Below, in pieces: positions 3,157-28,246 of a stretch of 32,000 bases of DNA (position 1 is the stretch's first letter; the number at the start of each line of letters is the position of its first letter). The notes beneath the pieces are model-generated. The model saw only the letters and a list, made by a program, of their open reading frames with translations, did no database searches and was not told the DNA's origin. Made by a program: the position numbers and the translations under genes. The DNA comes from Nostoc sp. PCC 7120 = FACHB-418 (GTDB lineage Bacteria; Cyanobacteriota; Cyanobacteriia; Cyanobacteriales; Nostocaceae), in NCBI RefSeq assembly GCF_000009705.1, contig NC_003272.1:420001-452000 (forward strand), in the 5' to 3' direction.

Positions 3157-6100
3157 TTGCCTGAGAGCAAAATTGTGATTAAACAAGATTATTTAAACTG
3201 GTATTTCACCTTAAGCTTATTAGTCAGCCTGACTTTAACAACAAATGCGAAAACCTTGGCACAAGTCACCGCCGACCAAACATTAGGAACACAAGTTACA
3301 GATATTGGCTTAAGTTATTTTGTTCAAGGTGGTACAACAGTTGGTAACACTAATTTATTCCACAGTTTTGGTAGTTTCAATGTTCCTAATGATGGTGCAG
3401 CAATTTTTATCAACGACCCCAGTTTAACTAATATCTTTGCACGAGTAACTGGTGGCACAGTTTCCGATATTCAAGGCAGAATAGGAACTCAAGGTACTGC
3501 TAATTTATATTTAATCAATCCTAATGGCATTATTTTTGGTACAAATGCTAGTTTAAATATCGGTGGTTCTTTTGTTGCTACCACTGCTAATACTATTCAA
3601 TTTCCTGGTGGTGCTGAATTTTCTCTAACTTCACCAGTTACATCAACAAACACACTACTAAGTGTCAACCCTACAGCATTTTTATTTAATCAAATTGCGA
3701 ATCAGGGTACAAACTCCATTGAAAATCGCGGTTATTTAGCAGTTCCTAATAATAAGAGTTTAATCTTACTTGGTGGTAATATTGCACCCACATCTAACGC
3801 CACTGGAAAAATTTTAATCGATGGTGGAGTGGTTCAGGCATTAAATGGTAGGGTAGAAATTGGTGGATTAGTTGAACCTGGTTTTATAGGAATTAATGTT
3901 GATGGCAACCAATTAAGCCTAACTTTTCCTGATAGTGTAGCAAAAACAGATATTTCATCGATTAATAATGGTACCGTTTTTACTTCTGGTGCTGGTGGTG
4001 GTGATATTGTAGTTAATGCTGATAACTTGAGCTTACTAAATTATGGTGCTTTTTTTACAGGCATACTTAATAACCAAGGAAACGCGGAAACTCAAGCAGG
4101 TGATATCTCAATTAATGCTACAGGCATTGTCACTGTTGCTCAAAATAGTATTATCTCCAATTCCTCTTTGGGAATTGGAGATAGTGGAAAAATCAACATT
4201 GTTGCTCAATCACTGCAAATCATTGATAATAGCTCAGTTCAATCATTTTCATTACAAGGTAATTCAGGAACAGTTAATGTTAAAGTGGATGATACGGTTT
4301 CCCTATTAAGCGGCCAAATTAGCAGTAGTGTTCGGCCAAGAGGTGCCTCTGCCTCTTCTTTACAGTCAAATTTATTAGGTACACCGACTAGGGGGAAAAG
4401 TGGTGGTATTAATATCCAGGCGCGCAGTCTTTTAGCAGTAGATAGTAGTGCGATAAGTGCAAGCAACTTTTTGGCAGATGATTCTGGAGATATTAAAATT
4501 CAAGCTACTGATGCGGTTATTTTGAATAACAGATCAACTATATCTTCAAGTGCTTTTGGCCAAGGGAAATCAGGTAATTTATCCATTAATACTAATTGGT
4601 TAAATATAATCAATAATTCTCAAATAACAGCTAATACCTTAGGAACTGGAAATGCTGGTGATATTAATATCATTGCTCTTGATATTAATATAGATAAATC
4701 TTTGATTACCGGAAGTACATCCTCTTTTTTAAACACTATCGTTAATTTAGGGAATGCTGGAAATATTAATATTCAAACGGCACGAATTAATCTAACTAAT
4801 AGTGGCTTCATTATATCTACTTCTGGCAGACCAGAACAGAAAGAAACAAGTGGTTTTGGTGGTAATATTAATATTACAGCCACTGAATTAATAGAAATAG
4901 ATCCAAAAGGTGCGACAGATATAATCACAGGTTTTAGTACCAGAACTTTTAGTGGTAGCCGTGCTGGTGACATAACGCTAAATACCAAAAATTTGATTGT
5001 GAGAAATGGCGGTGTTATCATGGCAGATGCTGCTAATAATTTAGGAGGAAACGCGGGAAACATTAATATCAATGCCTCCGATACTGTTAAGCTCATTAGC
5101 TCTCTAGGAAATTCTTATAGTAGAATTTTTACGGGTGTTGTATCTTCTGATAATAATGTGATGAATGCGGGTAATGGTGGGGAGTTAAATATTACCACTG
5201 GAAAATTACAGCTAACAAATGGCGTTATATCAGCAGCAACATTAGGTCAAGGTCATGCAGGTAATATTACTATATCTAGTAATGATGAGATAGTTCTTGA
5301 TAGTGGGTTAATATTTAGTCAAGTTGATGCTGGTGCAGTTGGGAATGGGGGAGATATTAATATTCAGACACCAAGACTAACTTTAACTAATGGTAGTCAA
5401 GTTGATGCTAGTATTCGGCGTGGAGGAATAGGCAAAGGTGGAACTATTCGCATTGATGCAGCCGATTCTGTAATTATTTCCGGACGGGATGCAGACGGTT
5501 TTGCTAGCTTATTAGCAGCTGGCAATGAAGGAGGAAGTATTGGTCAACCAGGAGACATTATTGCTAATACAGATTATTTTCTCATAGAAAAAGATGCTTT
5601 CCTGAATACAGGAACCTTTAACTCCAGTAACGGAGGTAGTGTTACCATTAATACTCGTATCTTTGAGGCTTTGACTGGTGGACGAATTTTTTCCAGCACT
5701 AGTAGTAGTGGCAAAGCAGGCGACATTATTATTAATGCTACAGATAGTATAACCGTCTCTGGGGTAAGTCCAGAAACTAGAAATAATGCTGCGATCGTTG
5801 CAGGAACACTTATAGACTCCACTGGTAATGGAGGAAAAATATCCTTATCCACTACTAATTTTAATTTAAGTAACGAGGCTGGAGTTTTCACACGCAGTCA
5901 GGGACGAGGCATTGCAGGGGACATCAACATCACTGCTAGAGGCAATTTGAATGTTAATAATGCTTTTATCAGCGCACGAGCTGAACAGGCTGGTGGTGGA
6001 AATATCGATATCATCACTAAAAATGTTAACCTACGCAATCACAGTGATATCCGCACAGATTTATCTATAGGTGAAGGTAGAGGTGGTAATATTTCCCTCA

Positions 6101-6633
6101 CAGCAGATATCATCATTGCCTTAGAAGATAGCGATATTCTCGCCTTTGCACCGGAGGGACAAGGTGGGGATATTAAATTTAATACCCGCGCTGTATTTAG
6201 CGATTCGCTCTACAACTCCAGACAAACAGCATCTGATAGAAATAGTCTTCAGTCACTAGTGAGTAATAGTAGTTCCGATATTAACGCTACAGGGACAATC
6301 TCTGGCAAGATTATTGGTGTACCTGATATTAGCTCTATCCAAAACGGACTCACAGAATTACAAGCTAATCCCATTGATACTACAGTACTTATTGCTAATA
6401 GTTGCATTGCTCGTAGTCGTAGACAAGAAGGGACTTTTATTATTACGGGGACTGGTGGTTTACCAACTCGTCCTGGTGAGGCCGTGAATTCCAGCTACCC
6501 CACAGGTGATGTGCAGAGTGTCACTCATCAGAGTACGGCTAGTTTGTGGAAAAAAGGTGACCTGATTATTGAACCGCAAGGAGTGTATAAGCTGGCGAAT
6601 GGAGATGTGGTGATGAGTCGTGAGTGTCATTGA
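3157..6633 (+). CDS. Two-partner-secretion (TpsA/filamentous hemagglutinin N-terminal domain) beta-helical exoprotein, paralog 1
   Basis: 1158-aa ORF. Signal peptide ends ..KTLA/QVTAD. TPS-domain motifs: NTNLFHSFGSFNV and LINPNGIIFG. Long array of about 20-aa beta-helix repeats (GNAGNINI type). By homology to paralog 2 the true start is probably GTG 3175 (MIKQDYLNWYF), not TTG 3157. Confidence 0.85.
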   Translation: MPESKIVIKQDYLNWYFTLSLLVSLTLTTNAKTLAQVTADQTLGTQVTDIGLSYFVQGGTTVGNTNLFHSFGSFNVPNDGAAIFINDPSLTNIFARVTGGTVSDIQGRIGTQGTANLYLINPNGIIFGTNASLNIGGSFVATTANTIQFPGGAEFSLTSPVTSTNTLLSVNPTAFLFNQIANQGTNSIENRGYLAVPNNKSLILLGGNIAPTSNATGKILIDGGVVQALNGRVEIGGLVEPGFIGINVDGNQLSLTFPDSVAKTDISSINNGTVFTSGAGGGDIVVNADNLSLLNYGAFFTGILNNQGNAETQAGDISINATGIVTVAQNSIISNSSLGIGDSGKINIVAQSLQIIDNSSVQSFSLQGNSGTVNVKVDDTVSLLSGQISSSVRPRGASASSLQSNLLGTPTRGKSGGINIQARSLLAVDSSAISASNFLADDSGDIKIQATDAVILNNRSTISSSAFGQGKSGNLSINTNWLNIINNSQITANTLGTGNAGDINIIALDINIDKSLITGSTSSFLNTIVNLGNAGNINIQTARINLTNSGFIISTSGRPEQKETSGFGGNINITATELIEIDPKGATDIITGFSTRTFSGSRAGDITLNTKNLIVRNGGVIMADAANNLGGNAGNININASDTVKLISSLGNSYSRIFTGVVSSDNNVMNAGNGGELNITTGKLQLTNGVISAATLGQGHAGNITISSNDEIVLDSGLIFSQVDAGAVGNGGDINIQTPRLTLTNGSQVDASIRRGGIGKGGTIRIDAADSVIISGRDADGFASLLAAGNEGGSIGQPGDIIANTDYFLIEKDAFLNTGTFNSSNGGSVTINTRIFEALTGGRIFSSTSSSGKAGDIIINATDSITVSGVSPETRNNAAIVAGTLIDSTGNGGKISLSTTNFNLSNEAGVFTRSQGRGIAGDINITARGNLNVNNAFISARAEQAGGGNIDIITKNVNLRNHSDIRTDLSIGEGRGGNISLTADIIIALEDSDILAFAPEGQGGDIKFNTRAVFSDSLYNSRQTASDRNSLQSLVSNSSSDINATGTISGKIIGVPDISSIQNGLTELQANPIDTTVLIANSCIARSRRQEGTFIITGTGGLPTRPGEAVNSSYPTGDVQSVTHQSTASLWKKGDLIIEPQGVYKLANGDVVMSRECH

Positions 6634-6656
6634 ACAAATGTTTAAAAGCAAAGCTT

Positions 6657-9600
6657 ATGATTAAACAAAAAAATTTTAATTGGGTTTTTTACTTAGGTTT
6701 ATTATTCAGCGTAGGTGTAACAACAAATAACCAAACCTTGGCACAAGTCACAGCCGACCAAACATTAGGAACACAAGTTGTAGATATTAATTTAAACTCC
6801 TTTATTTTAGGTGGTGCAACAGTTGATAACACTAATTTATTTCACAGTTTTGGTAGTTTCAATGTTCCTAGTGGTGGTGCAGCAATTTTTATCAACGACC
6901 CCAGTTTAACTAATATCTTTGCACGAGTAACTGGTGGCACAGCTTCCGATATTCAAGGCAGAATAGGAACTCAAGGTACTGCTAATTTATATTTAATCAA
7001 TCCTAATGGCATTATTTTTGGCACAAGTGCTAGGTTAAATATCGGTGGTTCTTTCGTCGCTACCACAGCTAACGCCATTCAATTTCCTAGTAGTACTGAA
7101 TTTTCTTTAACTTCACCAGTTACATCAACAAACACACTACTAAGTGTCAACCCTACAGCATTTTTATTTAATCAAATCGCCAATCAAGGCACAAACTCCA
7201 TTGAAAATCGCGGTTCTTTAATAGTTCCTAATAACAAGAGTTTAATCTTACTTGGTGGTAATATTGCACCCACATCTAACGCCACTGGGGAAATTTTAAT
7301 GGATGGCGGAAGACTTGGAGCATTAGGTGGTAGGGTGGAAATTGGTGGATTAGCTGCACCTGGCTCTGTGGGAATAAATACTAATGGCAACAGTTTAAGC
7401 CTAAGCTTTCCTGATAGCGTAGCAAGAGCAAATACTTCATTAATAAATAATGCTTTGATTCTTGCTTCTGGTGTTGGCGGTGGTGATATTGTAGTTCATG
7501 CTAATAGTTTGAGTTTACTAAATAGTAGTGATTTTTTTGCAGGTATACTTGATAATCAAGGAAGCTCTCAAACTCAAGCAGGTGATATTGCCATTAATGC
7601 TACTGGCATTGTCACCGTTGCTGAAAATAGTATCATAGGAAATTCGTCTTTAGGAATTGGAGATAGTGGGAATATCAACATTGTTAGTCAATCGCTGCAC
7701 ATAATAAATGGTAGTGTTCAGGCATTTTCTCTACAAGGCAATTCAGGAACAGTTAATATCAAAGTTGGTGATACAGTTTCCCTGTCAGAAAGTCAGATTA
7801 GCAGTATTGTTCGACCCAAAGATTCCTCTTTACAGTCAAATTTTTTAGGAACGCCAACTCGTGGAAAAAGCGGTGGTATTAATATCCAAACGCGAAATCT
7901 TTCAGTGGTTGATAATAGTATAATAAGTGCCAGCAACATTTTGGCGGATGATTCTGGAGATATTAAAATTCAAGCTAATAATTCCGTTATTTTGAATAAT
8001 AGAGCAACTATCTTCTCAAGTGTTTTTGGACAAGGAAATGCGGGCAATTTATCTATTATTACTAATCGTTTGGATATAAGAAATAATTCTCAAATAGCAA
8101 CTACTACATTTAGCAATGGAAATGGAGGTGATATTAATATTAATGCTCATGACATTAGTATAGATAAGTCTTTTATTAGCGGAGGTGCATCGTCTTTCCG
8201 AACAGATATCACAAATATAGGTAATGCTGGGACTATCAATATCCAAACAGAAAGAATTAGTCTCACAAATCGTGGTTTGATTACATCTATTTCTGACGAA
8301 CCAGCACCGGAAAAAACAATCGGTTATGGCGGAAATATTAATATTACAGCTAATGAATTAATAGAAATAGATACAAAAGGTACAACAGGTGTAATTACGG
8401 GTTTAGTTGCCAGAACTTTTAGTGGCAGTCGTGCTGGTGACATAAACCTGAATACCAAAAATCTGATTGTTAGAGATGGCGGTTATATCAGCGTAGAAGC
8501 TGCTAATAATTTAGGGGGAAATGCTGGTAATATTACTATCAACGCATCAAATTCTGTTGAGTTAACTAGCTCCATTGGCAACCGTCCTAGTATAATTTTT
8601 ACTGGTGTTTCAGACTTTAATGATAATGCGATCGCTGTGGGTAACGGTGGTGACTTAAAAATTAGTACTCAAAATTTACAGCTAACAAACGCCGCTATAT
8701 CAGCCGGGACTTTCGGTCAAGGTAATGCAGGCAATATTAATATCTTCAGCAATGATGGGGTGGTAATTGATAATAGTGTGATCAATAGCCGAATTGGTGC
8801 TGGCGCAGTTGGAAATGGTGGTGATATTGACATCCAGACACAGAGGCTAACTTTAACTAATGGTGGTGGGATTGATACTGTAGTCTCCCCACCAGAAGGA
8901 AATTTACCTGGCGGACAGGGTAAAGGCGGAACTATTCGTATCAATGCTACAGATGCAGTCACTATTTCAGGAACTAATGCTAATGGGTTTGAGAGTGCAA
9001 TCTTGACTGAAACCCAAGGAGGAGCCTTTGGTCAATCTGGCGATATCATCATTAATACGGATTATTTCCGTGTCGTAGACAACGGTAGTGTATCGACATT
9101 AACAGGAAATAGTAGTGATGCAGGTAATATTCTGATCAATACCCGTGTAATGGAGGTGTTGAATGGTGCAGCAGTAGTTACAGGAACTGAGTCTATTGGT
9201 AAAGCTGGTGACATTACCATTAATGCTACAGATAAAATTAACATCTTGAGCAACACCGACTTACATGGTAATACTGGTTTACTGGCTAGCACTACTTCTA
9301 GTGGAGATGCGGGGAATATATACCTATTTACAACTGAACTTAACTTATTAGCCCCTAATTCTAACTTGCCAGCTCCCGTCCTTGTGGCCACATTAAGTCA
9401 AGGAAGCGGAATAGCCGGGAATATTAATATTGTTGCCACAGGTAATTACAATGCCAATAATGGCTTAATCAGCGCACGATCTGAACAAGCCGGTGGTGGA
9501 AATATCAGTGTCAATGCTAGAAATATCAACCTACGGAATAACAGCGACATTCGTACAGATTTATTTAGTGGTAGCGGTAAGGGTGGAGGAATTTCCCTCA

Positions 9601-10133
9601 CCGCAGATATTATCATTGCCTTAGAAGATAGTGATATTCTCGCCTTTGCACCGGAGGGACAAGGCGGCGATATTAACTTTAATACCCGTGCTGTGTTTAG
9701 TGATGCTCTCTACACTGCTAGGGAAACAATACCTGATAGCAATAGTCTTCAGTCAATAGTTAATAATAGTCGCCCTGACATTAACGCCACAGGGACAATC
9801 TCTGGCAATATCATTGGTGTACCTGATATTAGCTCTATCCAAAACGGACTCACCGATTTACAAGCTAATCCTATTGATACTACAGTACTGATTGCTAATA
9901 GTTGTATTGCTCGTAGTCCTAGACAAGAAGGAACTTTTATTATTACGGGGACTGGTGGTTTACCAACTCGTCCTGGTGAGCTTAAGGCTTCTAATTATCC
10001 CACAGGAGATGTGCAGAGCGTTAGTAATAATAATGTAGCTAGTGCGTGGAAAAAAGGCAACGCTATAGTTGAACCACAAGGAGTATATCGACTGGCAAAT
10101 GGGGATATGGTGATGAGTCGTGAGTGTAGTTAA
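6657..10133 (+). CDS. Two-partner-secretion (TpsA/filamentous hemagglutinin N-terminal domain) beta-helical exoprotein, paralog 2
   Basis: Same architecture as 3157-6633. The N-terminal roughly 300 aa and C-terminal roughly 200 aa are nearly identical to paralog 1. ATG 6657 (MIKQKNFNWVFY) is preferred over the ORF-track GTG 6624, which would overlap the end of paralog 1. It lies 23 nt after the upstream stop, so the two are probably an operon. Confidence 0.85.
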   Translation: MIKQKNFNWVFYLGLLFSVGVTTNNQTLAQVTADQTLGTQVVDINLNSFILGGATVDNTNLFHSFGSFNVPSGGAAIFINDPSLTNIFARVTGGTASDIQGRIGTQGTANLYLINPNGIIFGTSARLNIGGSFVATTANAIQFPSSTEFSLTSPVTSTNTLLSVNPTAFLFNQIANQGTNSIENRGSLIVPNNKSLILLGGNIAPTSNATGEILMDGGRLGALGGRVEIGGLAAPGSVGINTNGNSLSLSFPDSVARANTSLINNALILASGVGGGDIVVHANSLSLLNSSDFFAGILDNQGSSQTQAGDIAINATGIVTVAENSIIGNSSLGIGDSGNINIVSQSLHIINGSVQAFSLQGNSGTVNIKVGDTVSLSESQISSIVRPKDSSLQSNFLGTPTRGKSGGINIQTRNLSVVDNSIISASNILADDSGDIKIQANNSVILNNRATIFSSVFGQGNAGNLSIITNRLDIRNNSQIATTTFSNGNGGDININAHDISIDKSFISGGASSFRTDITNIGNAGTINIQTERISLTNRGLITSISDEPAPEKTIGYGGNINITANELIEIDTKGTTGVITGLVARTFSGSRAGDINLNTKNLIVRDGGYISVEAANNLGGNAGNITINASNSVELTSSIGNRPSIIFTGVSDFNDNAIAVGNGGDLKISTQNLQLTNAAISAGTFGQGNAGNINIFSNDGVVIDNSVINSRIGAGAVGNGGDIDIQTQRLTLTNGGGIDTVVSPPEGNLPGGQGKGGTIRINATDAVTISGTNANGFESAILTETQGGAFGQSGDIIINTDYFRVVDNGSVSTLTGNSSDAGNILINTRVMEVLNGAAVVTGTESIGKAGDITINATDKINILSNTDLHGNTGLLASTTSSGDAGNIYLFTTELNLLAPNSNLPAPVLVATLSQGSGIAGNINIVATGNYNANNGLISARSEQAGGGNISVNARNINLRNNSDIRTDLFSGSGKGGGISLTADIIIALEDSDILAFAPEGQGGDINFNTRAVFSDALYTARETIPDSNSLQSIVNNSRPDINATGTISGNIIGVPDISSIQNGLTDLQANPIDTTVLIANSCIARSPRQEGTFIITGTGGLPTRPGELKASNYPTGDVQSVSNNNVASAWKKGNAIVEPQGVYRLANGDMVMSRECS

Positions 10134-23339: not shown

Positions 23340-23648
23340 TCATTCCTGTTTTTCAGTTTTCTGCTCTGTGGGTAAATCTAGATAACTGGATAGCCCCACA
23401 TCCAGGCTATCAGTTTCTCGGTTGGCTTGAATAACATCGCGCTGGATGTTTCGCAGCAGTTTGAATAACAGCCTGTCGGATATCTCACCAACTAGTAAAC
23501 TAGCTAAAAATACCCCCACTGTACAAATAATCACCGCAAACAAACCCAAGGGCGCAATAATTAAAATCACCCAAGTCACCGCCGCATTGACTATAGCTAC
23601 AATCCAGCTACGATATCGGACTAATTTTTTTGTGACAGATGCAGACAT
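23340..23648 (-). CDS. Hypothetical small membrane protein (2 TM), divergent from cas1
   Basis: 102-aa ORF with two hydrophobic helices (WIVAIVNAAVTWVILIIAPLGLFAVIICTVGVFLASLLV) and a charged C-terminus. No family recognised. Confidence 0.45.
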   Translation of the reverse strand: MSASVTKKLVRYRSWIVAIVNAAVTWVILIIAPLGLFAVIICTVGVFLASLLVGEISDRLLFKLLRNIQRDVIQANRETDSLDVGLSSYLDLPTEQKTEKQE

Positions 23649-23808
23649 AATCTTTGTCCTTGCTTGTTGATGAAAGTGGATTTATTCTGACATCCCTGTG
23701 GAAGTGGGATTTTCCATTAGGGGTGGAGAATGTAGACAAACTAAGAGAATTAACTTCCCCACTGTTACACGTATCTGTAAAGACTCGTAGTGTCTTTTCT
23801 TATAAGAG

Positions 23809-23836: not shown

Positions 23837-24847
23837 ATGACGACACTTTATCTAACCGAACCAGGAACTATACTCCGTTATCGCAACGAGTCGTTAATTA
23901 TCATGAAGCAGGAAAAATCTCACAATTGTCGCCTAGCAGAAATCACGCTTATAGTTGTTTTACCAGGTGTTCAGTTGACCGATGTGGTGATTTCCCAATT
24001 ACTTGACCGGGGTATTGAAACGATATTTCTTCGTCAAGATGGACAATTTCGCGGTCGTCTCCAGGGACACTTTGCAACTAACATGACTATTCGTCTAGCT
24101 CAGTACCGCACTGTAGAAACTACATTTGGGATGGCGCTAGCACAAAAATTGGTGATTGGTAAAGTGCGTAACCAACGAGTTCTGCTACAACGGCGTAACC
24201 GCGCTACGAATGGACAGATTAGTGAATTAACCGAAGCAATTGATTTAATTAGCGTCTATGCTTCCCAGTTGAACAACACTACTACGCCGTTAAATCGTAA
24301 CGAACTTATGGGAGTTGAGGGAATTTGCGCTCGGACTTATTATCAAGCGCTTAAACATTGGTTTCCGACGCAGTGGAATTTTAACGGACGCAATCGCCGT
24401 CCACCATTAGACCCAATTAATGCGTTATTGAGTTGGGGATATGGCGTATTGTTAGCACGGGTGTTTTCTGCTTGTGTCCAAGCTGGACTTGACCCATATT
24501 TAGGATTTTTCCACGCTATTGAACCCTATCGCCCGAATTTAGTGCTGGATTTGATGGAAGAGTTTCGACCCGTGGTGGTAGACCAAGCCGTGATTTCTCT
24601 AATTCAGTCAGACTTATTAACCCAAGAAGATTTTCAGCCTTCCCCTGATGGTGTGGGTATTTGGTTGGGAACTATGGGAAAAAAGCTATTACTAGGAGAA
24701 TTAGAACGTCGCTTCCGCACCTCTGTACTTTATCCCCCACAAAATCGCCAATTGAGTTTGAATCAAATTTTACTGGAACAAGCCCGCAGTTTGGGACGCT
24801 GTTTATTACAGTCAAAGTTAGACTATGAAGCATTTGTTATCAAATGA
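23837..24847 (+). CDS. cas1: CRISPR-associated endonuclease Cas1
   Basis: Cas1 pattern: MTTLYLTEPG..., catalytic-region motifs LMGVEG, LGFFHA, LVLDLMEEFRP. The ORF is open from 23654, but ATG 23837 gives the usual length of about 336 aa. Followed by cas2 and a CRISPR array. Confidence 0.9.
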   Translation: MTTLYLTEPGTILRYRNESLIIMKQEKSHNCRLAEITLIVVLPGVQLTDVVISQLLDRGIETIFLRQDGQFRGRLQGHFATNMTIRLAQYRTVETTFGMALAQKLVIGKVRNQRVLLQRRNRATNGQISELTEAIDLISVYASQLNNTTTPLNRNELMGVEGICARTYYQALKHWFPTQWNFNGRNRRPPLDPINALLSWGYGVLLARVFSACVQAGLDPYLGFFHAIEPYRPNLVLDLMEEFRPVVVDQAVISLIQSDLLTQEDFQPSPDGVGIWLGTMGKKLLLGELERRFRTSVLYPPQNRQLSLNQILLEQARSLGRCLLQSKLDYEAFVIK

Positions 24848-24850
24848 AGA

Positions 24851-24941
24851 TGACTGATGACTGATGACTGTTGACTGATGACTGTTGACTGTTGACCGTT
24901 GACTGTTGACTGTTGACTGTTGACTGTTGACTAATGACTAA
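24851..24941. repeat. STRR heptamer tandem repeat (TGACTGW)x13 filling the cas1-cas2 intergenic space
   Basis: 13 consecutive 7-mers (TGACTGA / TGACTGT / TGACCGT / TGACTAA), counted directly. The tract carries stop codons in all three forward frames. Confidence 0.95.
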
Positions 24942-24954
24942 AAACCAATAACTA

Positions 24955-25239
24955 ATGACCAAACTTTATTTAGTGTGTTATGACATACCTGACGATAAGC
25001 GTCGGACTAAACTGGCTAAGTTAATAGAACAGCGCTGTCAACGAGTACAGTATTCCGTATTTGAATGTCCTTTAGAGGAGTCTGTTTTGAATTATCAGTT
25101 AGAGAAGCGTTGGCTACCCATACTGAAATTAAGTGAGGACAGTCTCAGGGTTTATCCTCTTGATGCTACAGCCAAGCAGCAAACAAGGGTCTATGGTGGT
25201 GAGCCTCCTTATGAACCACCAGATTATTTAATTTTGTAA
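24955..25239 (+). CDS. cas2: CRISPR-associated endoribonuclease Cas2
   Basis: 94-aa ORF with Cas2 signatures LYLVCYDIPDDKRRTKLAKL...RVQYSVFEC. Confidence 0.9.
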   Translation: MTKLYLVCYDIPDDKRRTKLAKLIEQRCQRVQYSVFECPLEESVLNYQLEKRWLPILKLSEDSLRVYPLDATAKQQTRVYGGEPPYEPPDYLIL

Positions 25240-25572
25240 CGTCTATACTCTGGTGAAAATGATGTTTTTAAAGGCTGAAACGCAAATTTTTACTAGGGCT
25301 TGGCAGTTTGTAACGGATTGTAAATGTCACTGCTAATTCGTCGCAGGGAGATATGACAAGCTAGGAAGAATAAATATGTGTAAATAAAAGTAAAGTTAGT
25401 AATTTAACCTTGACTACTGGAGTTTATTCGGTTAAATTGTCTATAAAGCTGAATTTTGGTAAAAAAGCTTTTGATTTATCACTACTGAGTGTATAAACTA
25501 CAATAGCTTTTGCGTACCTCGGCGCAACTGAACCTTGAAATCTAAATATAGTAATAGTTTCCAAAGGGTAGG
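25240..25572 (+). promoter_or_regulatory. CRISPR leader with a candidate promoter
   Basis: 333-nt AT-rich region between cas2 and the first repeat. Candidate promoter TTGACT (25410-25415), 17 nt, TAAATT (25433-25438). An alternative TATAAA lies at 25492-25497. Polarity is supported by repeat decay at the far end of the array. Confidence 0.55.
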
Positions 25573-27853
25573 GTTACTTACCATCACTTCCCCGCAAGGG
25601 GATGGAAACTCCATGAACCTCTCCCCGCTGACCCGCGCGTCCCGTTACTTACCATCACTTCCCCGCAAGGGGATGGAAACAAAAAGCATCTAAAAGGCTG
25701 AAGGATTTACCAGAAGAGGCGAGTTACTTACCATCACTTCCCCGCAAGGGGATGGAAACCCACTCTCGTGCTGCATCGGAGCGGAAGCACAGGCCCGTGG
25801 GAGCTCGGTTACTTACCATCACTTCCCCGCAAGGGGATGGAAACGCGCGCTGCCGCGCCGCCGTGCGCGACAGGCCGCGGTGCCGCCGCAGGTTACTTAC
25901 CATCACTTCCCCGCAAGGGGATGGAAACCCATTGGCAAAGGCGCGGCACCGGACACCCTGGCGACGGAATGGTTACTTACCATCACTTCCCCGCAAGGGG
26001 ATGGAAACTAACGACTGCGATGATCTAGTCGCGGACTAAAAGTTTCCATCAAGTTACTTACCATCACTTCCCCGCAAGGGGATGGAAACTCGCCGGACAG
26101 GATGCGCACCTGCCATCCTCGCGCGCGCAGGTTACTTACCATCACTTCCCCGCAAGGGGATGGAAACTGGGAAGGATGTATTCCTAGAACTCCAGAAGAG
26201 AGAATAGAAGAAAGTTACTTACCATCACTTCCCCGCAAGGGGATGGAAACCTCCTCGGCCTGGGCGGGCGGCAGGATGCCTTCAAATGGGTTACTTACCA
26301 TCACTTCCCCGCAAGGGGATGGAAACGTTGGCGGATCTGATGTTCGATGATCTGGGAATAGAGTTACTTACCATCACTTCCCCGCAAGGGGATGGAAACG
26401 TCTAGCTGAAGAGGTAGCCAAAGGTAATCCTGATGCTATATCTGTTACTTACCATCACTTCCCCGCAAGGGGATGGAAACGACCTGTATAATTCATATTC
26501 ATTGTGATATCTTCCACTTTTACAAGTTACTTACCATCACTTCCCCGCAAGGGGATGGAAACGTGAAGTACCCGGCGAGCTGCGACGAGTGCGGCAGCTG
26601 CGCCGAGTTACTTACCATCACTTCCCCGCAAGGGGATGGAAACTATCAAACTTATATAAACACAGCAAAGCTATCCTATGGTTACTTACCATCACTTCCC
26701 CGCAAGGGGATGGAAACGTAATAGCAACTCGTATGTATCTTGAAGAAACTCACCCTTCTGAGGTTACTTACCATCACTTCCCCGCAAGGGGATGGAAACG
26801 TCCTGGGTGAACTCCAGGCCCAGGCCGAGGTGTTTTTTGGCGTTACTTACCATCACTTCCCCGCAAGGGGATGGAAACCTCGGAGGTGCAGTATGGCGGG
26901 ATCAACGATCGCCGCGGCGTGGCTGGTTACTTACCATCACTTCCCCGCAAGGGGATGGAAACTCCATTCGCCCATACGTCGGTAGCACCAGGCAAACACA
27001 GAGGTTACTTACCATCACTTCCCCGCAAGGGGATGGAAACGTTTGTATGGACGGCCATACAGATCGCCGATGGAAGTTACTTACCATCACTTCCCCGCAA
27101 GGGGATGGAAACTTTATCCTTGCAATCCATACCTCCGTTTGCTGTAGGTTACTTACCATCACTTCCCCGCAAGGGGATGGAAACACAAACTAATTTACCA
27201 AATTACTCCACAAGAAATTGTGGAGTTACTTACCATCACTTCCCCGCAAGGGGATGGAAACTGTCCCTATCCAAAATACTCCTTTTTTATAAGGGTTACT
27301 TACCATCACTTCCCCGCAAGGGGATGGAAACCGTAAGGCCAAGCTATGAAGTAGGCAAAGTTAAATTTGTTACTTACCATCACTTCCCCGCAAGGGGATG
27401 GAAACCTCAAGTGCTTTAGATGTTAATTTAGTTAGTCCACTAACGATGTTACTTACCATCACTTCCCCGCAAGGGGATGGAAACTTGGCTGAGTCAGATC
27501 TAATTGCCAGTCCAATAACTTCAGTTACTTACCATCACTTCCCCGCAAGGGGATGGAAACACAACACATTCACGGTGTTTCACAATCGCCACATAGTCAG
27601 TTACTTACCATCACTTCCCCGCAAGGGGATGGAAACACCTCTTTTACAACATCTGCCCAGGCTTCGCGGAAACTGAAGAGTTACTTACCATCACTTCCCC
27701 GCAAGGGGATGGAAACCGTTCTTTTAAATGACGCAGAGTATTATCTACAATTAGTTACTTACCATCACTTCCCCGCAAGGGGATGGGTGCGACTCTAGGC
27801 ATAGCCAAGTCAGTAGGCAAGCCAAGCTTACTTACCCACAAGGGGGCGGAAAT
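25573..27853 (+). CRISPR. CRISPR array with 28 perfect 37-nt repeats, one 3'-degenerate repeat and one truncated remnant; 29 spacers of 33-48 nt
   Basis: Repeat GTTACTTACCATCACTTCCCCGCAAGGGGATGGAAAC has an internal CCCC-GCAA-GGGG hairpin and a 3' ATGGAAAC handle. First repeat is 25573-25609. Repeat 29 (27754-27790) ends GGGTGC instead of GGAAAC. Remnant CTTACTTACCCACAAGGGGGCGGAAAT is at 27827-27853. Repeat shape resembles Cas6-processed type III / I-D cyanobacterial repeats. Confidence 0.97.
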
Positions 27854-27927: not shown

Positions 27928-27960
27928 CCCAGTACCCAGTCCCCAATCCCCAATCCCCAG
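27928..27960. repeat. STRR heptamer repeat (CCCAGTN / CCCCAAT)
   Basis: cccagtacccagtccccaatccccaatccccag, read directly. Confidence 0.8.
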
Positions 27961-28080: not shown

Positions 28081-28228
28081 CTGCGGGAACGCCTTGCGGC
28101 GAATGCGTCTTTGCGCCTTTGCAGACATACTTTAAGGAAATCTCCCCGCTAAATTCCACTGCGGGAACGCCTTGCGGCGAATGCGTCTTTGCGCCTACCG
28201 CAAGCGGAACGCCTGGCGGCGAATGCGT
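28081..28228. repeat. Three copies of a GC-rich dispersed repeat
   Basis: CTGCGGGAACGCCTTGCGGCGAATGCGTCTTTGCGCCT occurs at 28081-28118 and identically at 28159-28196. A partial diverged copy, GCGGAACGCCTGGCGGCGAATGCGT, lies at 28204-28228. Confidence 0.85.
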
Positions 28229-28246
28229 GAGACAAAAATCATCCCA

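Follow-up and report, generated by a model that had tools for sequence, protein, structure and literature searches.

GC-rich spacers at the leader end of CRISPR array CR_1 in Nostoc sp. PCC 7120, a possible record of DNA entry from other phyla

Results

The array and its adaptation genes

The window examined here is a 32-kb stretch of Anabaena/Nostoc sp. PCC 7120 DNA (contig NC_003272.1, positions 420,001 to 452,000), in agreement with the Nostoc-type host that a preliminary description of the same DNA had proposed, and its feature of interest is a clustered regularly interspaced short palindromic repeat (CRISPR) array beside the adaptation genes csx18, cas1 and cas2. Nine of the 28 spacers of this array, CR_1, are at least 60% guanine plus cytosine (GC), and their origin is the subject of this work. 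The array shows near-identical repeats, unique spacers, adjacent adaptation genes, an AT-rich leader, a degenerate repeat at the leader-distal end and spacers that match phages. All 28 spacers are different and each is 33-48 nt long. The repeat belongs to Rfam family RF01331 (CRISPR-DR18) on the plus strand, with 56.8 bits against a gathering score of 50, and an Rfam scan of the array for structured RNA from which spacers might derive matched the repeats only. Since the orientation of the repeats, the leader and the degenerate far end all agree, the newest spacers lie on the left, at the leader side. At the opposite end, a vestige of a further decayed repeat implies that one more very old spacer of 51% GC lies at approximately 27791-27828.

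The region is the already published array CR_1 of this strain and not a new system. Given that Reimann et al., 2020 (bioRxiv 10.1101/2020.04.14.041012) counted 28 major repeats and one variant in CR_1, that they matched its 45-nt spacer 12 to phage N-1 at 5214-5258, and that they reported a cas1-cas2-csx18 cassette standing isolated in the genome of PCC 7120, all of which agree with the window, the two arrays are the same locus. There is no structural difference from the published array, and in the window the cassette adjoins it. The same authors found that CR_1 is transcribed, that its precursor is cut only by the Cas6 protein Alr1482, leaving an 8-nt tag, and assigned CR_1, as one of the group 1 arrays, to the strain's type III-D system (Reimann et al., 2020). 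The 3' end of the CR_1 repeat, ATGGAAAC, is the 8-nt 5' tag expected from processing by Alr1482. A study by Hou et al. from 2019 is said to be a further source on CR_1, alongside that of Reimann and colleagues. The terms 'GC content' and 'G+C' occur 0 times in Reimann et al., 2020, where neither a split in spacer GC nor a GC-rich foreign origin is mentioned; the GC pattern of the CR_1 spacers appears to be unreported.

The three adaptation genes are recognised by family profiles (Table 1). The mechanical open reading frame (ORF) of cas1 begins at 23654. Its homologues are 335-336 aa long, a length that suits a start at the ATG of position 23837, where the N-terminus MTTLYL is at residue 62 of the mechanical ORF; position 23837 is probably the true start. 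The Cas1 protein beside CR_1 has a Cas1 domain only, and the 32-kb window holds no reverse transcriptase (RT) gene and no effector gene (cas10, RAMP genes or csx19), so that, apart from its adaptation genes, CR_1 is an orphan. For comparison we used eight loci whose Cas1 is 76-88% identical to that of CR_1. The cas1-cas2-array unit stands beside type III effector operons (Cas10, RAMPs, Csx19, Csx3) in six of the eight, which fits the type III assignment of CR_1, and related loci hold a small ORF at the position equivalent to csx18.

Within the cassette, a tandem run of about 17 heptamers (TGACTGA/TGACTGT) at 24837-24955 spans the cas1 ORF at its 3' end together with the gap between cas1 and cas2. 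The run has the appearance of a short tandemly repeated (STRR) element of Nostoc that was inserted among the adaptation genes.

GC-rich spacers cluster near the leader

The nine GC-rich spacers are numbers 1, 3, 4, 5, 7, 9, 13, 16 and 17, counted from the leader (Table 1). Those between them are 28.9-47.2% GC, spacer 18 is intermediate at 56.1%, and the ten oldest, spacers 19-28, are 29.7-51.4% GC. Recomputation reproduces all the spacer GC values of the preliminary description, the interleaving included, and its estimate of roughly 40% GC for the host window compares with 41.8% computed. That description had also named a comparison with related strains as a check, and it sets CR_1 apart: spacers of at least 60% GC make up 9 of 28 here and 10 of 268 in the eight homologous arrays, whose spacers have a mean of 41.5% GC (Fisher p=8e-6), with only 4 of the 268 at 65% or above. 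Moreover, all nine lie within the 17 leader-proximal spacers (p=0.0035). The excess of GC-rich spacers in CR_1 is solid. The word bimodal describes the values fairly but is not established as their distribution, since in a mixture model of the 28 GC values two components barely beat one (Bayesian information criterion -17.3 versus -16.2).

Such a composition is not that of the host, as only 0.7% of 45-nt windows outside the array but within the 32-kb window reach 62% GC and the maximum is 69%. Indeed, the composition of the nine spacers is incompatible both with the host and with its known phages, exemplified by Anabaena phage Elbi, which infects PCC 7120 and has 36.7% GC.

Table 1. Features of the CR_1 locus; positions are those of the 32-kb window.
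Feature	Position	Strand	Details
csx18	23340..23648	-	102 aa; divergent from cas1; NCBIfam NF040558 CAS_Csx18, 90.1 bits against cutoff 50
cas1	23837..24847	+	Pfam PF01867, E=2.4e-86; TIGR00287, 350 bits; start probable
cas2	24955..25239	+	94 aa; Pfam PF09827, E=2.9e-20; TIGR01573, 95 bits
AT-rich leader	25240..25572	+	34.2% GC; between cas2 and the first repeat
CRISPR array CR_1	25573..27790	+	28 identical 37-nt repeats GTTACTTACCATCACTTCCCCGCAAGGGGATGGAAAC and a terminal degenerate copy at 27754
Spacer 1 (newest)	25610..25643	+	34 nt; 70.6% GC; GC by codon phase 50/64/100%, p=0.03
Spacer 3	25760..25807	+	68.8% GC; codon periodicity absent
Spacer 4	25845..25891	+	87.2% GC; one phase 100% G/C
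Spacer 5	25929..25971	+	67.4% GC; codon periodicity absent
Spacer 7	26090..26130	+	73.2% GC
Spacer 9	26251..26289	+	69.2% GC; 13-nt word CCTCGGCCTGGGC common to the reverse complement of spacer 16
Spacer 12	26481..26525	+	28.9% GC; Anabaena phage Elbi, 44/44
Spacer 13	26563..26606	+	70.5% GC; frame +1 VKYPASCDECGSCA; frame -1 SAQLPHSSQLAGYF; one phase 100% G/C
Spacer 16	26800..26841	+	61.9% GC; strongest periodicity, 86/29/71%, p=0.008
Spacer 17	26879..26925	+	68.1% GC; frame +2 SEVQYGGINDRRGVA
Spacer 26	27561..27599	+	43.6% GC; its positions 2-25 equal Elbi 45714-45737, tail collar gene ELBI_71
Remnant of another decayed repeat (ACTTACCCACAAGGGGGCGGAAA)	27829..27852	+	local alignment to the repeat, 19/23

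The GC-rich spacers resemble coding DNA

Taken jointly, the nine spacers have a three-base periodicity of GC that was reached in 0 of 2000 shuffles (p<0.0005); individually it is significant in spacers 1, 13 and 16. The claim that nearly all their third positions are G/C is fully borne out by spacers 1, 4 and 13 (100%) and in part by 7, 9, 16 and 17 (80-87%); spacers 3 and 5 do not bear it out. Two translations given in support of it were confirmed, namely VKYPASCDECGSCA from frame +1 of spacer 13, in which 14/14 third positions are G/C, and LRRHRGLSRTAARQR from spacer 4 read as its reverse complement (15/15).

A codon model was built with 10,594 codons of metagenome contigs at 60-72% GC as its training set. 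The best frames of the spacers score in it as typical high-GC coding sequence, and the two strands are not told apart: spacers 4, 7, 13 and 16 come out better on the minus strand, spacers 1, 3, 5, 9 and 17 on the plus strand, all by small margins, and for spacer 13 the opposite-strand reading SAQLPHSSQLAGYF is as codon-like as VKYPASCDECGSCA. A first impression, from GC at codon position 1 exceeding that at position 2, that the CRISPR RNAs (crRNAs) would be mostly antisense is therefore withdrawn, as the model gives four minus against five plus and cannot separate the strands. As far as composition and codon usage can tell, the nine spacers as a set resemble coding DNA from a genome with 65% GC or more.

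A separate observation concerns the 13-nt word that spacer 9 has in common with spacer 16 in reverse complement. It lies in the frames that the codon model prefers, reads LGLG in both, and is matched in length by 2 of 300 shuffles; the two spacers may derive from related or repeated genes of one source.

Coding-like spacers imply transcribed sequence, and this is one of two points that speak for copying of the spacers from RNA by the RT-Cas1 of a type III-D locus acting in trans on CR_1, in place of the local Cas1-Cas2. The other is that an RT-Cas1 gene is present in PCC 7120 between arrays CR_2 and CR_3, which belong to the same repeat group (Reimann et al., 2020). Against it, the Cas1 beside CR_1 has no RT domain and the CR_1 repeat is only approximately 65% identical to the CR_2/3 repeat; furthermore, foreign RNA would still have to be made in or delivered to the cell, and the proposal concerns the acquisition step only and names no source. 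We consider this route improbable.

Artefact or host DNA as a very improbable source

Could the GC-rich spacers be products of an assembly chimera, contamination or low complexity, or pieces of the host genome? Spacer 4, at 87% GC, is compositionally extreme, and our self-search covered 29.7 kb of host sequence. However, within those 29.7 kb, which are the window outside the array, no spacer has a match, host windows of comparable GC are rare as described above, and the codon periodicity opposes low complexity. In addition, every GC-rich spacer is set between perfect repeats, and the array matches the published description. Cas2 and an identical array also occur in GCA_014697155.1 (FACHB-418), in a UBA genome bin and in several mock-community or 'metagenome' assemblies from JGI (Joint Genome Institute) and the European Nucleotide Archive (ENA). 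Since the same array is found in independent assemblies, its spacers are not an assembly artefact, and this rival is largely refuted; an artefactual or self origin is essentially excluded. Given its identity across the assemblies examined, CR_1 also appears to be static in culture.

One of the ENA projects, PRJEB12287, is a synthetic mock community (Schirmer et al., 2016). A copy of the array without spacers 12 and 13, otherwise identical, was seen in the mock-community assembly ERZ926324 (L003), and is due either to repeat-mediated loss in the stock that was sequenced or to collapse during assembly. Nostoc sp. PCC 7120 is a member of the PRJEB12287 mock community.

Low-GC spacers match Nostoc phages

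Two of the 19 other spacers (29-56% GC) can be traced, and unmatched spacers are thus the norm in this array. Spacer 12, which matches phage Elbi, is also 92-97% identical to phages N-1, A-1(L), Dfl-JY23 and YongM2, and its crRNA would be antisense to the Elbi structural gene ELBI_7. The match of spacer 26 to Elbi (24/24) covers only the first part of its 39 nt and is sense to the gene, so that it would not guide RNA targeting of the ELBI_71 mRNA. Phages A-1 and N-1 have 38.3 and 35.4% GC, respectively (PMC4916379). Judged by these matches, the low-GC class is ordinary anti-phage memory of the A-1/N-1/Elbi group.

Searches for the source of the GC-rich spacers

Searches of plasmid, phage, IMG/VR, species-genome and metagenome collections, of the kind that the preliminary description had set out as a check, turned up no protospacer for the GC-rich spacers. 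Among PLSDB plasmids none of the 28 spacers had a match at E<=0.01; a second search at E<=5 with the GC-rich spacers and spacer 18 returned 15 records, all at E>=0.2 and hence at chance level. GenBank phages gave nothing significant for the GC-rich spacers. Since exact scans would miss diverged relatives, we also used degenerate DNA patterns in which the periodic third positions were replaced by N and, where the sequences allowed, two spacers were merged into one IUPAC pattern. There were 0 matches in the 2.9 million contigs of IMG/VR for spacers 4 and 7 together and for 13, 17, 1, 9 and 16, and 0 matches in 185,579 species genomes for the merged pairs 13 and 17, and 9 and 16. In JGI metagenomes the pattern for spacers 4 and 7 had eight matches, all chimeric chance matches with 19-31/41 identity. 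The patterns do match the window. Its own array was not recovered from the genome and metagenome collections, and the genome of CR_1 itself is evidently missing from them or masked. Finally, 15 spacer translations joined as one query, a poor design, had no match at E<=10 among 5.8 billion proteins.

Uniform negatives of this kind would be explained if the source were eukaryotic and GC-rich, or a virus of such a eukaryote, because the collections searched do not cover eukaryotes. Green algae with genes rich in GC at third codon positions (GC3), fungi or amoebae that share the habitat are examples, and a GC3 near 100% with an overall GC of 62-87% also fits such nuclear genes. There is no positive evidence for such a donor, however, and no apparent route of entry, and the only GC-rich spacer traced in this array family is bacterial (see below). 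A eukaryotic source is, in our view, very improbable.

Several similarities below the level of significance were followed and rejected. Spacer 17 resembles the zinc-ribbon protein gp47 of Pseudomonas phage PMG1 (17+10 identical bases, QHGGINDSATGVA versus QYGGINDRRGVA, E=0.2), a protein whose domain is present in temperate and jumbo Pseudomonas phages and in Cupriavidus plasmids. Scored with a hidden Markov model (HMM) of this domain, the 168 spacer frames were led by those of spacers 7, 13 and 17, at a score that 1.1% of real GC-rich fragments reach, which for three of nine spacers gives P=1e-4. Nonetheless, we do not accept that the three come from one phage zinc-ribbon domain: their scores are just 4-5 bits and are driven by the Cys motifs; the 4Fe-4S motif of Sinorhizobium NuoG gives spacer 13 a better alignment, which is also in frame; for spacer 17 the opposite strand matches Burkholderia iclR just as well (E=0.7, chance level); and neither 31 homologues in IMG/VR nor plasmids included a closer relative. 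A scan for GGINDRRG found unrelated sequences only. Spacers 13 and 17 join in frame as if from adjacent protospacers, an arrangement that tblastn and the HMM do not support.

The ferredoxin-type reading of spacer 13 proposed at the outset is plausible but ambiguous, since the opposite strand is equally codon-like and the best matches are at chance level or below threshold. The NuoG alignment (ASCDQCGNCVE versus ASCDECGSCA) has 28-29 of 32 nt identical at a chance-level E of 0.2-3, and the best Pfam match, the mycobacteriophage zinc-binding domain PF24331 (E=0.03), scores 14.7 bits against a cutoff of 27.

A related array holds a spacer from a housekeeping gene

A precedent for capture across phyla comes from one of the eight related loci, L024, in a Nostocales genome of 7.9 Mb and 38% GC whose Cas1 is 82% identical to that of CR_1. 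Spacer 8 of its array (L024:11620-12721), ATCGAGGTCAACATCTCCAACCTCGCGGCCGTGCCCTCGA, has 62% GC and matches pstA of Paracoccus denitrificans over 36/38 nt (E=2e-6), and, at 85-90%, the pstA genes of ten more bacteria, of which nine are Alphaproteobacteria and the tenth is a Pseudonocardia. The spacer is in the same sense as pstA, and its crRNA could therefore not pair with the pstA mRNA; it was apparently captured without selection for function. Among the traced spacers of both arrays, spacer 12 of CR_1 is thus antisense, and spacer 26 and the pstA spacer are sense. On the strength of this match, the CR_1 array family is one that captures chromosomal housekeeping DNA of GC-rich heterotrophs across phyla.

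Other spacers of 60-69% GC occur in three of the eight related arrays (L023: 12, 21 and 61; L026: 10, 12, 14, 38 and 46; L024: 4). All of these but spacer 46 of L026 were searched in the same way, and the eight had no database match. In these relatives GC-rich spacers are sporadic (approximately 4%), as against the burst in CR_1.

Discussion

About a third of the CR_1 spacers, and half of the recent ones, would derive from a genome whose GC is far above that of the host and of any known Nostoc phage. Our preferred explanation, in which we place somewhat more than even confidence, is that the GC-rich spacers are mostly coding DNA of GC-rich co-habiting bacteria, or of their mobile elements, captured before the strain was isolated. 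In the mechanism that we propose, the csx18-cas1-cas2 cassette would insert new spacers at the leader end of CR_1. Before isolation, DNA of co-habiting heterotrophs of approximately 65-70% GC or more, of their phages or of their plasmids would have entered Nostoc cells repeatedly, with uptake of free DNA, conjugation and abortive injection as candidate routes, and Cas1-Cas2 would have sampled this DNA in alternation with infections by phages of the A-1/N-1/Elbi group. By the published account, the crRNAs of CR_1 serve the type III-D effector, which is encoded elsewhere in the genome. We infer the foreign bacterial origin of the nine spacers, the timing and the entry route from the composition and placement of the spacers and from the pstA precedent. 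The interleaved, leader-proximal placement fits repeated recent acquisitions. The initial proposal of a recent, repeated encounter with a high-GC replicon therefore stands as regards composition and interleaving; since no protospacer is known for any of the nine, the singular 'replicon' and the class of the source are unproven.

Several points weigh against this explanation. None of the nine GC-rich spacers has a protospacer in the collections searched, and spacers 3 and 5 lack coding periodicity. A common cultivated neighbour should give at least one match, so that an unsampled mobile element fits the negatives as well as or better than a chromosome does. Nine foreign spacers of 17 far exceed the sporadic rate in relatives, and capture of bystander DNA alone is insufficient to account for them. 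Furthermore, we know of no indication that PCC 7120 is naturally competent.

The main rival, which we judge unlikely, holds that the source is an unsampled GC-rich parasite of Nostoc, whether phage, plasmid or integrative element, which is transcribed in the host and against which the spacers are kept for type III-D protection. Nine acquisitions interleaved with phage spacers suggest sustained pressure and not accident, and the negative scans of species genomes suit a mobile element better than a chromosome. CRISPR spacers are in general mostly unmatched in databases, as they are here among the other 19, and spacers 13 and 17 bear the non-significant likeness to phage zinc-binding and zinc-ribbon proteins described above. 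On the other hand, all Nostoc and Anabaena phages matched here have 35-38% GC (PMC4916379 for A-1 and N-1), an element of 70% GC with saturated GC3 is badly suited to a host of 41% GC, and there was no match in the 2.9 million IMG/VR contigs, even at the amino-acid level. An RNA-targeting type III system needs antisense spacers, and the codon model shows no excess of that orientation (four minus versus five plus, with small margins). Moreover, the single GC-rich spacer traced in a relative is from a housekeeping gene and in sense orientation.

The preferred explanation, capture from co-habiting bacteria, can be extended, and we do so tentatively because the extension is more doubtful: a filamentous cyanobacterium might routinely receive DNA of other phyla, Csx18-Cas1-Cas2 would log the traffic, and CR_1 would hold a burst of nine entries. 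If such uptake between phyla were routine, the arrays of Nostocales could be read as its log, be the route natural competence, conjugation or promiscuous injection by phages, and this for a lineage in which uptake is hardly documented. If neighbouring heterotrophs are the source, the spacers are natural evidence that DNA of a foreign phylum enters Nostoc often enough to be sampled, a matter of relevance to horizontal gene transfer and to the natural competence of heterocystous cyanobacteria, and PCC 7120 is genetically tractable. If instead the source is a GC-rich element that infects Nostoc, the spacers are ready-made probes for that element. In a model cyanobacterium, the CR_1 spacers may form a natural record of the entry of DNA across phyla.

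Comparable records are said to exist in other systems. Turgeman-Grott and colleagues reportedly found in 2019 that haloarchaea take up spacers from chromosomal genes of other species during inter-species mating. There, as here, arrays record DNA of other cellular organisms, housekeeping genes included, and the pstA spacer of the related Nostocales array is the same kind of event. The haloarchaeal study is cited in bioRxiv 10.1101/2025.06.18.660351. In contrast, the haloarchaeal donors are close relatives, the route is cell fusion and the system is of type I-B, whereas the donors of CR_1 would belong to another phylum and the array feeds a type III system. The type III systems with RT-Cas1 described in 2016 and 2017 by Silas and colleagues are said to have 'hyperdiverse, enigmatic' spacer repertoires. 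CR_1 resembles them as a type III-associated cyanobacterial array with mostly unmatched spacers and with an RT-Cas1 elsewhere in the genome, but it differs in that the Cas1 adjoining it has no RT domain. We know of no report of a GC class discordant with the host in RT-Cas1 spacer repertoires. Lastly, the type II-C CRISPR system of Neisseria meningitidis reportedly limits natural transformation (Zhang and colleagues, 2013); the likeness lies in spacers that correspond to DNA of other strains, chromosomal or prophage, which arrives in free form. In that case, however, the donors are conspecific and competence is established, neither of which is shown for PCC 7120.

Other features of the window

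Just downstream of CR_1, at 27929-27958, is a second run of the heptamer type (CCCAGT/CCCCAAT). Three copies of a GC-rich 38-nt direct repeat, CTGCGGGAACGCCTTGCGGCGAATGCGTCTTTGCGCCT, follow at 28081-28238, two of them identical and one 61% identical; they sit between CR_1 and a UPF0176/rhodanese gene and are matched by no spacer. Two further features are unrelated to the spacer finding. One is a subtilase with a P-domain and RTX repeats at 124-2826, and the other, adjoining it at 3157-10133, is a pair of tandem ORFs of approximately 1160 aa with two-partner-secretion (TPS) domains. The remainder of the window holds ordinary housekeeping genes.

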